This document shows positions 24,223 through 27,472 of a stretch of 64,000 bases of DNA, one piece after another. The position numbers and the translations under genes were made by a program. Position 1 is the first letter of the stretch; every line of letters starts with the position of its first letter. The stretch is from Gammaproteobacteria bacterium (GTDB lineage Bacteria; Pseudomonadota; Gammaproteobacteria; Coxiellales; Coxiellaceae): the NCBI GenBank assembly GCA_022601255.1, contig JAHZIV010000038.1:16959-80958 (forward strand), given 5' to 3'. Below the pieces are notes generated by a model. It was not told the DNA's origin. It did no database searches and saw only the letters and a list, made by a program, of their open reading frames with translations.

Positions 24223-26034
24223 ATGTTAGATCTAAAGAAATTCTTATCCGCCCTTGAAACCAGTCGGCTAACCCACCTCTTCTCATACCTCGAGGGACGG
24301 GCCCCTGGTGACATAGAAGAGTTAGTTGGTTTATTACCTAAAATCTATGACACTGCAACAGGTGAATTTGATGCTGAGGGCTTGAAAGAATTTTATCGTA
24401 TATTAGAGCGCTATTTCGGCAATGTACATAAACGGCTGCACGAACAGCCAAAAGAAGCATCAGCAACAGAATTCTTTACCACTTTATCAGAGATAATAAC
24501 GCTTGCAAAAATGCTCCTGGATCTTAAGAAGGAAACAGTATCCGTTTTAGGCGATGTAGATTTATCCATTCTTAATATGATGGAAAAGGCCTTGCAAAAA
24601 GGTCTAACAGAATCACTGTCTCCAAAACTTTGTTATGACGCCCTTAAGTCTGTAACTAGAGCCCGTGCGGAATCAAATGATTTCTATCGAGCTTTGTTAT
24701 TAGGGCTGACATTAAAACCTAAAGATAAAGACGATCGTTTTGAGTTAGGCGATTATAACTTTTCAGACCTCTTGCCAGTAGGCACAAGAGCAGTGAAACG
24801 CATGCAGCATGACGATGACTCCTCCAGCGATTCAGATGAAGATGACACTGCCCCCATTCCAGCCACCGTGTTTGACCCCGCACTCAACTTGTCTGCTGAA
24901 GAAGAGCTAGTGCTAATAGGGTTAGAAGCCACACTTTCTGCAGCTAGCAAGCACAGCAGGGAGTATTGTTTAGAGAAGCTACCAAGAAAGTTTCAGCCTG
25001 TTGCTTTAAAGCTATTAAATAGAGTAAGCCATAAGCCAGCAGAGCGGGAAGCTAAAAGGCACATACGATTATTAGGGGCTCTCTTTCTTAATAGCGGACA
25101 AATTACAAGTGCATTAAACGTTTTCCAAGTTCGGGGGGCAGGAGGTAACGGGGCAGACTTGGCTCAACAATGGCGGCAGCATTGTGAAACATCACTCAGA
25201 AAAATTTACGAACGAACTGCATCAGTCGAGCAAAACATTATGTGGTTCATTGCAGCCTATACGGCAGATAGCGACTTGAGTAGAGAGGCACTGATGGATG
25301 ATGCCCACGCTTACAAACGGGTGGCTGACCAAATAATAGAATGGCGAAGCACTAATACGCCTGACACTGCACTTGATGACTCATTAGATGAAATAGATAT
25401 ATTCGATATTTGCGTTTTCCCATACTTATTGCTTGACGGCATCAGAAGAATGCAAACAACCCCAGAATATGTTTTTCCTAAGGATCTTTTTTGTTTAGCA
25501 ATGCAATCATCGTATCGTTTAAGCTTGCATGCGGATGCAGAAGTCACTTTTTCTAGATTTCTCCCCATGGAAATTTCCTTAAATTCTGATTTACTCGAAT
25601 TAATATTTACAAGAACGTTTCAAAGTAATTTTGACGCTTTGATGGCGTCTGTCATTCATGGCATGAACGCTTATCCTGATCGAGAAGATTCGTCAGAACT
25701 ATTTGAAACAACCCAAGATTTACATGAAGCAAAAATGTTATTCCGCTTATTTTTCTCGACGGAAGGAAAGCGGTTAACTGTTTTTGATGCTTTTTTTGAT
25801 CTTTTAGAAACGAGAAAACGCGAAATTCTATTAAGTAATTTAGAACAATTAAACGCTGGCCTGTCAGAATACAAAGAAAGCTTAGGCCGGGCTGGAGCTG
25901 ATAGTGCTGCTGAAGCAACTAAGCTTGGAGCGTTAATTGCAGCACAAAGTGCGTTATGGACCGTTGCTAGTGGTTCAGATGAAGTGACTAATAATACTGA
26001 CGTTGCTTTACCAGGGCCTGCTCCAAGTCAGTAG
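24223..26034 (+). CDS. Orphan 603-aa protein, no recognisable domain (candidate effector)
   Basis: Long clean ORF. Acidic Ser/Asp cluster HDDDSSSDSDEDD (nt 24808-24846). No TM or signal peptide. Confidence 0.65.
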   Translation: MLDLKKFLSALETSRLTHLFSYLEGRAPGDIEELVGLLPKIYDTATGEFDAEGLKEFYRILERYFGNVHKRLHEQPKEASATEFFTTLSEIITLAKMLLDLKKETVSVLGDVDLSILNMMEKALQKGLTESLSPKLCYDALKSVTRARAESNDFYRALLLGLTLKPKDKDDRFELGDYNFSDLLPVGTRAVKRMQHDDDSSSDSDEDDTAPIPATVFDPALNLSAEEELVLIGLEATLSAASKHSREYCLEKLPRKFQPVALKLLNRVSHKPAEREAKRHIRLLGALFLNSGQITSALNVFQVRGAGGNGADLAQQWRQHCETSLRKIYERTASVEQNIMWFIAAYTADSDLSREALMDDAHAYKRVADQIIEWRSTNTPDTALDDSLDEIDIFDICVFPYLLLDGIRRMQTTPEYVFPKDLFCLAMQSSYRLSLHADAEVTFSRFLPMEISLNSDLLELIFTRTFQSNFDALMASVIHGMNAYPDREDSSELFETTQDLHEAKMLFRLFFSTEGKRLTVFDAFFDLLETRKREILLSNLEQLNAGLSEYKESLGRAGADSAAEATKLGALIAAQSALWTVASGSDEVTNNTDVALPGPAPSQ

Positions 26035-26065
26035 GGAAACGACTCGTTAACACATGCTGCTCATT

Positions 26066-26163
26066 GTCATTGCGAGCGCTAAGCCGTCATTGCGAGCGCA
26101 GCGAAGCAATCAATACAGTCAGACATCTACTCTCTAGATTGCTTCGCTACGCTCGCAATGACA
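26066..26163. repeat. Tandem plus inverted copies of a gtcattgcgagcgc-type repeat
   Basis: gtcattgcgagcgc at 26066 and 26086. The 26-nt gtcattgcgagcgcagcgaagcaatc (26086-26111) recurs inverted at 26138-26163 with 1 mismatch and a 26-nt spacer. Confidence 0.75.
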
Positions 26164-26196
26164 GAGGTGCCACTGTTCGCAATGACGAAAAGCAGC

Positions 26197-26382
26197 ACAG
26201 ATAAAAAGATTGTAACGAGGGCGGATTAAAAGCAGATGTATTAGCATAGCCTGCTTTTTAGCTGTGATGACATTTTGGAGGATAATGTGAGCGAGCAGCG
26301 CAGTGTATACATCAATACATGAGCAGCACAGCAAGCATTATCATTCAAAAGAGCTTACAGATAAAAAGATTGTAACGAGGGC
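26197..26382. repeat. Perfect 26-bp direct repeat pair spaced 160 bp
   Basis: acagataaaaagattgtaacgagggc at 26197-26222 and 26357-26382. Confidence 0.75.
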
Positions 26383-26395
26383 TCAAAAGTTAGAT

Positions 26396-26586
26396 ATAAA
26401 AAAGGGGTGATGTTACTCACCCCACTGCTAAGTTGGCAATCCATACCAAAGCCCTATCCGTAGACTTTCTCGATCCGTGAGAAAACCGGTTCCCTAGTGG
26501 CCTAATAAGTCCGTCCGAAAACGTACTCGCTTATCCATAAACTATGCGGGATACTCTAAGCACTTTTACTATCCCACACAACAATA
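26396..26586 (-). ncRNA. Candidate ~190-nt sRNA, GGA-rich (possible CsrA-titrating Rsm/Csr-type RNA)
   Basis: Minus-strand promoter TTGATC (26615-26620), 16 nt, TATAAA (26593-26598). Terminator ggggtga/tcacccc plus T5 (26396-26422). 8 GGA triplets, two of them in hairpin loops (26466-26482 and 26432-26448). No ORF with an SD. Confidence 0.4.
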
Positions 26587-26821
26587 AAATCCTTTATATA
26601 ATAACAACTTACGTGATCAAAGCCGATGCAGCTAAATAATTTTTATATTATTATCAATAGGTTACGCTCGCGACCTCTGAGCTAGTTACTTTTGGAACAC
26701 ATTAAAGTTCATCTTCACTTACGCACATTAAGGAGATATCCTACATCTATCCTCTCTTTAAGGGTGTATTTAGGCTGTTTAAACCAGTTTTTAGTTTATA
26801 CAAAATAATTAAGGGATTGTT

Positions 26822-27472
26822 ATGAAGAAAATTGCGCTAATTTTATCAGGCTGCGGTGTGTTTGATGGCAGCGAAATTCACGAAACTGTGTCCGCAATGA
26901 TTGCTATTACGCGCGAGGGTGCGCAGTATTATTGTCTTGCACCAAACATCTCACAATACAAAGTCACGAATCATGTGACACAAGAAGACATGAATGAAAC
27001 TCGCAATGTATTGATCGAATCGGCACGCATTGCGCGCGGCGACATTAAAGATATTACAAAAGCCAATATCGATGATTACGATGCGGCTTTTTACCCTGGC
27101 GGTTTTGGTGCTGCAGTTAACTTAAGTGATTTTGCTGTTAAAGGCGCTGATATGACCGTACAAACAGATGTTCTAGCATTTGCAAAAGCGATGGCAGCTG
27201 CAGGTAAGCCACAAGGATTTTGTTGCATCGCCCCTGCTTTGGTTTCAAAAATATATGGTGCCGGTGTAACACATACGATCGGCAGTGACCCTGAAACAGC
27301 AGCAGTAATCGAAGCAATGGGCGGCAAACATAAAACATGCAGTGTCACAGAAGCTGTTGTCGATAAACAACATAAGGTCGTCACAACACCTGCCTACATG
27401 CTTGCACAAAACATTGGAGAAACTGCCGATGGTGTTGCAGCGGCAATTCATGAGTTGGTAGCAATCAGTTAA
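26822..27472 (+). CDS. elbB: ElbB-type DJ-1/PfpI family protein (glyoxalase / isoprenoid biosynthesis protein ElbB)
   Basis: MKKIALILSGCGVFDGSEIHE N-terminus and the CIAP nucleophile-elbow context typical of ElbB. Confidence 0.8.
   Translation: MKKIALILSGCGVFDGSEIHETVSAMIAITREGAQYYCLAPNISQYKVTNHVTQEDMNETRNVLIESARIARGDIKDITKANIDDYDAAFYPGGFGAAVNLSDFAVKGADMTVQTDVLAFAKAMAAAGKPQGFCCIAPALVSKIYGAGVTHTIGSDPETAAVIEAMGGKHKTCSVTEAVVDKQHKVVTTPAYMLAQNIGETADGVAAAIHELVAIS

Follow-up and report, generated by a model that had tools for sequence, protein, structure and literature searches.

A CbsR1-family small RNA gene, most likely encoding a GacA-activated CsrA decoy, in an uncultured member of the Coxiellaceae

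The subject of this work is a small RNA (sRNA) gene in a 64,000-nt stretch of DNA (the window), which lies within the 108-contig, 1.9-Mb genome of an uncultured, sponge-associated member of the Coxiellaceae. The gene, at 26397-26546 on the minus strand, is predicted to specify a ~150-nt non-coding RNA of the CbsR1 family, whose most likely role is that of a GacA-activated decoy for CsrA. An earlier note, made from the letters of the window alone, had proposed an Rsm/Csr-type GGA-hairpin RNA at this position, and comparative sequence data support that proposal by placing the 3' domain of the RNA in 21 of 24 genera of the family, a UvrY/GacA-type repeat upstream of most copies, and genes for GacA and CsrA in the same genome. 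The elements on which the note drew, namely a promoter (P1 below), a terminator, GGA triplets, two hairpins and a csrA gene, were all located in the minus-strand or window sequence.

The abundance of GGA triplets at this locus is exceptional for the genome. There are eight in the 195 nt at 26396-26590 on the minus strand, six of them as A.GGA, against 1.65 expected from the genome-wide frequency (Poisson P(≥8) = 3e-4) and the ~2 that had been estimated by chance from composition. Eight or more GGA occur in ~0.09% of all 195-nt windows of the whole genome and, when A.GGA density is ranked in 120-nt windows across its 1.9 Mb, the locus comes first among non-coding sequences and joint first overall. 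A search for minus-strand open reading frames (ORFs) of at least 30 aa across the sRNA stretch found none, in agreement with the earlier description of ~190 nt that lack an ORF led by a Shine-Dalgarno sequence. The stretch is also single copy in its own genome, both by blastn and by the covariance model (CM) introduced below.

Comparison of the locus with 60 relatives by blastn matched its 3' 95 nt in five other genera of Coxiellaceae, and the five sequences share a common plan that consists of a CUC-A-N-GGA-GAG hairpin, a UCUA-N-GGA-N-AGA element, a GGUA-N-GGAUU-R-CC hairpin and a G+C-rich terminator. A covariance model of the 3' 90 nt (R1), which covers three GGA hairpins and the terminator, was built from the window sequence and these five relatives; its structure was set by hand, since in MAFFT alignments of these six sequences helix 3 and the terminator were out of register. 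One genome of the Coxiella genus (G025, 2.0 Mb in 2 contigs) was left out of family scoring. In 44 of 64 Coxiellaceae genomes, which represent 21 of the 24 genera, R1 has exactly one match each, and outside the family it has convincing matches in 3 of ~199 gammaproteobacterial families that were sampled. Named genomes were also scanned with a sequence pattern, which gave 36 matches; about half are chance matches in unrelated phyla, in line with what such a pattern would predict. The remainder carry the labels Coxiellaceae, Coxiella, Paracoxiella, Legionellaceae or plain Gammaproteobacteria, and include uncultured Coxiellaceae, Candidatus Paracoxiella cheracis, Candidatus Coxiella mudrowiae and Coxiella sp.; it is these names that identify the family as the Coxiellaceae.

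The way in which these copies vary establishes a conserved gene and its strand. In a CM alignment of 30 sequences, 85.7% of the cells that should pair do so, and sliding the 3' partners lowers this to 49-54%; double changes occur at 14 of 23 pairs, and in 500 shuffles no observed measure was ever equalled. Double (compensatory) changes are found at all five pairs of helix 1 and at six of the seven pairs of the terminator, so that the check proposed earlier, folding together with compensatory changes in relatives, gave a positive answer for both elements. Helix 2 has a nearly invariant core, UCUA-N-GGA-N-AGA, and double changes at two of its five pairs, and the GGA triplets of loops 2 and 3 are invariant. 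Variation in helix 3 comes mainly from one genus, g12, in which UCUGGA-AUGGAAC-UCCAGA forms a different stem that presents the same GGA loop; the CM alignment shifts this g12 helix by 2 nt, and most of the cells scored there as not paired result from that shift. Support for helices 2 and 3 therefore comes mainly from conservation and from the g12 variant. The U-G pairs in helices 2 and 3 (in 14 sequences for helix 3) identify the minus strand of the window as the transcribed one.

The identity of the family follows from the copies in the Coxiella genus. Searched at gathering thresholds, Rfam gave nothing in the whole window, and at E ≤ 10 the interval 26000-27000 returned noise only (miRNA, snoRNA and U1 models). 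The models for CsrB, CsrC, RsmY, PrrB_RsmZ, RsmX and related RNAs had no match in the window at E ≤ 10, and the sole Csr/Rsm match among seven family loci scanned with Rfam was to CsrC, at E 0.013, on locus L021. Three Coxiella-genus copies do match RF02557 (CbSR1), with E values of 1e-23, 1e-14 and 2e-3 and scores of 114, 78 and 33 bits, all of them below the gathering score of 146 bits of a model that was built from near-identical C. burnetii sequences. R1 scores the window copy at 85 bits and locus L025 at 65 bits, and L025 in turn matches CbSR1 across all 112 positions (E 1e-23). In addition, the terminator of the Coxiella-genus copies is the one printed for CbSR 1 (PMC4064990). Because the Coxiella-genus matches of R1 reach RF02557, the window RNA is, as judged from sequence, a distant orthologue of C. 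burnetii CbsR1 and a family member by transitive homology. The earlier note had called it an orphan, a description that these intermediate copies displace; of the covariance-model scan that it advised, the part that relied on Rfam detected no window copy with any model, and the link to loci matching CbSR1 came from R1.

This assignment connects the locus to an RNA that has been studied by experiment. According to Warrier et al. 2014 (PMC4064990), CbSR 1 of C. burnetii is a 113-nt RNA, verified by Northern blot, that was the most abundant new sRNA in replicating (large cell variant, LCV) cells, with levels ~60-80-fold below these in the stationary forms. Five putative ANGGA sites and a putative LetA-like box are reported for CbsR1, CbsR1 and CbsR12 have been suggested as possible orthologues of RsmY/Z, and CbsR12 binds CsrA-2 in gel shifts, a binding that was shown for CbsR12 only (Wachter et al., bioRxiv 10.1101/679134).

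The predicted RNA and its parts, read 5' to 3' on the minus strand of the window, are as follows.

26397-26546, minus strand: predicted sRNA of ~150 nt with seven GGA, its start placed ~7 nt past the -10 element of promoter P2 (see below).
26529-26542, minus strand: 5' hairpin GUUUA-UGGA-UAAGC with GGA in its loop, from the minimum free energy (MFE) fold; part of the lineage-specific 5' module.
Between the 5' hairpin and AGGGAAC, minus strand: helix that holds CGGACGGAC, with two GGA paired, from the MFE fold.
Upstream of helix 1, minus strand: single-stranded motif AGGGAAC, from the MFE fold.
26467-26483, minus strand: helix 1, UUCUC-ACGGAUC-GAGAA, supported by covariation and predicted independently by RNAalifold.
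26451-26465, minus strand: helix 2, G-UCU-ACGGAU-AGG-(G)C, with the loop A-N-GGA-N and the near-invariant core UCUA-N-GGA-N-AGA.
26433-26449, minus strand: helix 3, UUGGUA-UGGAU-UGCCAA, with a conserved GGA loop and the g12 stem variant.
26398-26423, minus strand: intrinsic terminator GGGGTGA-GTAACA-TCACCCC (26423-26404), with a 7-bp G+C stem, a 6-nt loop and a T6 run (26403-26398), from a terminator scan.

Both of the GGA-loop hairpins that had been described before (helices 1 and 3) exist, although their coordinates were one base off and are in fact 26483-26467 and 26449-26433; the terminator was also present as described and is matched by the scan, with a run of six T where five had been counted. 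Six of the seven GGA in the ~150-nt RNA stand in an A-N-GGA context, and five are single-stranded in hairpin or internal loops. In the window RNA's own MFE fold, the GGA of helix 2 lies in an internal loop and not in a hairpin loop. The 5' 60 nt have no similarity in other genera by blastn, and analogous 5'-proximal GGA-loop hairpins occur in other genera. Across the family, the 5' module holds from 0 to 7 GGA and the predicted RNA ranges from ~105 to 185 nt in length. The g12 loci (L011-L014 and L018) have an RNA of ~107 nt that lacks a 5' GGA module and starts ~60 nt past the stop codon of rsmE.

Upstream of the RNA, the following elements were recognised.

26593-26620, minus strand: promoter P1, that of the earlier note, TTGATC (26620-26615), 16 nt, TATAAA (26598-26593); probably not the orthologous promoter.
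26553-26581, minus strand: promoter P2, of the family type, TTGTGT (26581-26576), 17 nt, TAGAGT (26558-26553), with spacings of 193 to the inverted repeat and 112 to the IHF-like site.
26652-26664, minus strand: IHF-like site TAACCTATTGATA (motif YAANNNNTTGAWW), 112 nt upstream of the end of the P2 -10 element.
26718-26723, minus strand: extra half-site CGTAAG, which follows the inverted repeat after 4 nt, from family comparison.
26728-26745, minus strand: degenerate UvrY/GacA-type 18-nt inverted repeat TGTAGGATATCTCCTTAA, which matches the family consensus TGTGAGATATCTCTTACA at 13 of 18 positions and starts 193 nt before the end of the P2 -10 element.

The positions of these elements are conserved between genera. 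Thirty loci anchored on their promoters give the consensus cTTGTnn, 16 nt, TGnTA(G/A)A(T/G)T. The repeat TGTGAGATATCTCTTACA, with 1-6 mismatches, is found 190-195 nt upstream of the end of the -10 element in 15 of 29 loci and 171-211 nt upstream in 22 of the 29, and most family loci have an extra half-site (TGTCAG, TGTAGG or TGTGAG) 4-8 nt after it. The motif YAANNNNTTGAWW lies in the same orientation, 108-112 nt upstream of the end of the -10 element, in eight loci from different genera, and the distance from inverted repeat to IHF-like site is 81-84 nt in all eight. Promoter, IHF-like site, half-site and inverted repeat thus each hold a conserved position. Matches to the repeat with at most 5 mismatches occur at 3.4e-5 per position in the window's own genome, so that ~2e-4 would be expected in the 7-nt slot that the family uses.

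This architecture bears on two statements of the earlier note, that no convincing GacA/LetA box lies upstream and that the RNA may belong to a different regulatory class. A degenerate box that matches at 13 of 18 positions is present at the family-typical distance of 193 nt, with a chance of ~2e-4, and a family-spaced repeat of the GacA type speaks against a separate class. From the window copy alone it was understandable that the box was missed, and the family comparison overturns that reading, as far as sequence can decide it. Another match to the repeat, with 5 mismatches, inside elbB at ~26954 of the window, was rejected because it agrees in one half-site only and stands at the wrong distance. 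The best UvrY-type repeat of the genome, the perfect palindrome TGTGAGATATATCTCACA, is at C81:13452-13469, 3.5 kb before window position 1; it is intergenic, with the ATG of a protein-coding gene (C81:13732) ~260 nt further on and no adjoining GGA-rich RNA, and may be a direct GacA target of another kind than an sRNA gene.

The same spacings decide between the two promoters. P1 was present exactly as the earlier note had given it, and P2 lies 40 nt downstream. Measured to the -10 element of P1, the inverted repeat and the IHF-like site stand at 153 and 72 nt, compared with 190-195 and 108-112 in the family, and P1 was rejected as the orthologous promoter on these grounds; the P2 values of 193 and 112 do fit, so P2 is taken as the orthologous promoter. 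The 5' end is consequently placed near 26546, which yields an RNA of ~150 nt with seven GGA in place of the ~190-nt transcript proposed before, and the first GGA counted in the earlier note (in GUGGGAUA) then falls within the promoter spacer. P1 may serve as a second start, and its use would give an RNA that extends to ~26587, with a length of ~190 nt and eight GGA. Neither P1 nor P2 passes a generic sigma-70 scan of the sequence. Transcription in the host organism, and the exact 5' end, are predictions from promoter sequence and family spacing.

The presumed partners of the RNA are encoded in the same genome. The csrA gene that had been reported in the window was found there:

9503-9685, plus strand: csrA, 60 aa, presumed to encode the protein that the RNA binds (ORF; PF02599, 76 bits, cut-off 27); the genome has three CsrA genes in all.

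The genome also encodes a UvrY/SirA/GacA equivalog (323 bits, cut-off 280), plus a weaker paralogue. Across the family, CsrA is present in 62 of 63 genomes, and the RNA in 31 of the 35 that have a GacA equivalog. Seven reduced genomes of the Coxiella genus (G068-G070 and G072-G075, 0.6-1.4 Mb) have neither GacA nor the RNA and retain a CsrA match, which often covers only Pfam positions 15-52; Candidatus Coxiella mudrowiae has kept the RNA, with a degenerate terminator, and has no GacA match. The co-occurrence of GacA and the RNA is suggestive.

Taken with the control region, these genes suggest how the system could work. A regulator of the UvrY/GacA family would bind the degenerate 18-nt repeat ~190 nt upstream and drive transcription, and an IHF-type bend at about -110 would carry the bound regulator to the sigma-70 promoter, a weak one; E. 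coli csrB has this same layout. The resulting RNA would present up to seven GGA motifs to CsrA and, as a decoy, would bind dimers of CsrA (of which the genome has three paralogues), so that their capture would free mRNAs otherwise repressed or stabilised by CsrA. Binding of GacA and IHF and sequestration of CsrA are all predicted here from conserved sites and genes.

A second RNA may operate beside this one. A GGA-hairpin RNA candidate with five hairpins and the loops A(A/G)GGA(A/U) lies outside the window at C71:13229-13459 on the minus strand (L094:530-760); it matches RF02561 (CbSR12) at E 8e-6 and 39 bits, far below gathering, and its 3' part has blastn matches in 12 of 24 genera. The genome thus seems, on sequence matches, to have a counterpart of CbsR12 as well as one of CbsR1, the pair that C. 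burnetii carries. The match to RF02561 was at L094:503-645 on the plus strand, the strand opposite the GGA motifs, and the consensus of the model has UCCUUG, the reverse complement of CAAGGA. Published CbsR12 is described as displaying AGGA/ANGGA, and the Rfam seed may be on the other strand.

Several observations weigh against a GacA-activated CsrA decoy and were considered in judging how firmly to hold it. With regard to the RNA, two of its seven GGA (those in CGGACGGAC) are paired in a stem of the MFE fold, the folding z-score is weak (-1.9 and -0.6 at lengths of 195 and 150 nt), RNAalifold alone predicts just helix 1 and the terminator from the CM alignment, and single-sequence folds often depart from the consensus, with 45 of 106 GGA in hairpin loops of the per-sequence MFE structures. 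Even at E ≤ 10, the window sequence has no Rfam match to a Csr/Rsm or CbSR model, and the five putative ANGGA sites and the putative LetA-like box reported for CbsR1 itself were given as 'data not shown' (Wachter et al., bioRxiv 10.1101/679134). With regard to its control, the inverted repeat of the window is degenerate (5 of 18 positions mismatched), copies from genus g12 have no UvrY-type inverted repeat within 600 nt, and no equivalog of BarA, GacS or LetS scores above cut-off anywhere in the genome. In addition, the co-occurrence of the RNA with GacA is modest, and its counts ignore phylogeny.

Other functions for the locus have to be weighed against the decoy. A CbsR1-family sRNA could act mainly as an antisense RNA to mRNAs, with its GGA motifs serving as anti-Shine-Dalgarno or seed elements, or could combine both roles as reported for CbsR12, which binds not only CsrA-2 but also transcripts of carA, metK and cvpD (10.1101/679134); the very high conservation of loops 2 and 3 would fit a conserved RNA target. 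We nevertheless consider this unlikely, since Csr/Rsm decoys are marked by this very combination of features (at least three A-N-GGA hairpin loops, a repeat of the UvrY/GacA type and a promoter laid out as at csrB), and since 5' modules that vary from no GGA to seven between genera show the modular variation to be expected of a multivalent protein sponge and would fit such a sponge better than a fixed seed.

It is far less probable that the stretch is a part or decaying remnant of a mobile or repetitive element, of the kind of a miniature inverted-repeat transposable element (MITE) or a repetitive extragenic palindromic (REP) sequence, rather than a gene in its own right. The adjoining DNA on the downstream side (26035-26396) does consist of two dispersed repeat families, the window inverted repeat is degenerate, and the neighbourhood seen in other genera, with rsmE upstream, has been lost; but only the DNA past the terminator is repetitive, the RNA stretch being single copy in its own genome and in every relative, and the family spacing of promoter, IHF-like site and repeat has been kept together with an intact terminator and three hairpins. 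Least probable of all is a cis-acting leader or attenuator, or a small-protein gene: the strong terminator ends the transcript and the next gene is convergent (a 603-aa ORF on the plus strand), and the AUG triplets that the RNA contains (AUGGAU twice) have no Shine-Dalgarno sequence, become AGG or AAG in relatives and open no conserved ORF.

The genomic surroundings of the sRNA gene differ between genera. Its neighbours in the window are elbB and an orphan ORF, and in several other genera it follows rsmE. The divergent neighbour, at 26822-27472 on the plus strand, is an ElbB glyoxalase equivalog (298 bits), and the convergent one, at 24223-26034 on the plus strand, encodes a 603-aa protein with no NCBIfam match. 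The two repeat families just 3' of the terminator include gtcattgcgagcg inverted repeats and a ~110-nt unit; they occur in dozens of copies on many contigs, and one copy also follows the CbsR12-like gene on C71. At the start of the window, positions 1-1741 on the plus strand belong to an ORF (C81:16870-18699) for a 609-aa hybrid sensor kinase with PAS, HisKA/HATPase, receiver and Hpt domains, which scores well below the cut-offs for BarA, LetS, TorS and ArcB.

A broader proposal can also be made, to which we give slightly less belief than doubt: the CbsR1 family may be the Csr sponge under Gac/Let control that has long been missing from the Coxiellaceae in general and from C. burnetii among them. 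Its control region, with the UvrY-type repeat at about -190, the extra half-site after it and an IHF bend at about -110, would be the very module that drives csrB in Enterobacteriaceae, a promoter architecture that would be ancestral to much of the Gammaproteobacteria and would have outlasted recognisable similarity of the RNAs themselves. Were this true, searches with the upstream module could reveal sponge genes that have so far gone unrecognised elsewhere. The CbsR1 family is in any case old and widespread in the Coxiellaceae, where CbsR1 was previously only a suggested candidate and the CbSRs were called unique to C. burnetii (PMC4064990). As a model, RF02557 is too narrow for annotating family members beyond the type species. 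For the uncultured, sponge-associated host, these results identify a likely master post-transcriptional switch, and the combination of a csrB-style module with three GGA-loop hairpins makes a cascade from GacA through CbsR1 to CsrA directly testable.

Comparison with known systems places the window RNA between several of them. With CbsR1 (RF02557) it shares a homologous 3' domain, with the CUC-A-N-GGA-GAG hairpin, UCUAAGGACAGA, GGUAGGGAUYRCC and the GGGGUG...CACCCC-U terminator; it differs in its unrelated 5' 60 nt, in four extra GGA and in its gene neighbourhood, and it falls below RF02557 even at E ≤ 10 within a family that spans 21 of 24 Coxiellaceae genera. CbsR12 (RF02561) is a sibling GGA-hairpin sRNA, and the two-RNA arrangement is common to C. 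burnetii and the window genome; it is nonetheless a separate gene to which the window RNA is not similar, and R1 finds one copy per genome.

CsrB is an RNA of ~370 nt with ~18-22 sites. Like CsrB (RF00018), the window RNA is a GGA-loop hairpin decoy for CsrA, in its case a predicted one, with a control layout of the BarA-UvrY/IHF type; unlike CsrB, it is much shorter (~150 nt, seven GGA) and has a degenerate repeat, and there is no detectable sequence homology between the two RNAs, the CsrB and CsrC covariance models having no match in the window. The likeness is greatest upstream of the gene. The csrB genes of E. coli and Salmonella have an 18-nt repeat TGTGAGAGATCTCTTACA centred at ~-183, followed after 5 bp by an extra half-site of the TGTAGG type (TGTAGGAGA), and an IHF site lies on the way from there to the promoter (PMC4682653). 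The Coxiellaceae family has its repeat TGTGAGATATCTCTTACA centred at ~-188, the same extra half-site and a positioned IHF-like site.

The window RNA can also be likened by size to RsmY and RsmZ, a comparison made with no Legionella sequence included and with no Legionella-specific model in Rfam. The RsmY and RsmZ RNAs of Legionella pneumophila, a sister lineage, are few-site GGA-hairpin decoys of ~110-130 nt under the control of LetS and LetA, LetA being the orthologue of GacA, and the Legionella LetA box is TNAGAAATTTCTNA. Some family members match this box exactly, for example TAAGAAATTTCTTA in L033, although its spacing to the promoter may be different in Legionella. By analogy, the closest functional counterparts of the window RNA would be CsrB for promoter architecture and Legionella RsmY/Z for size.

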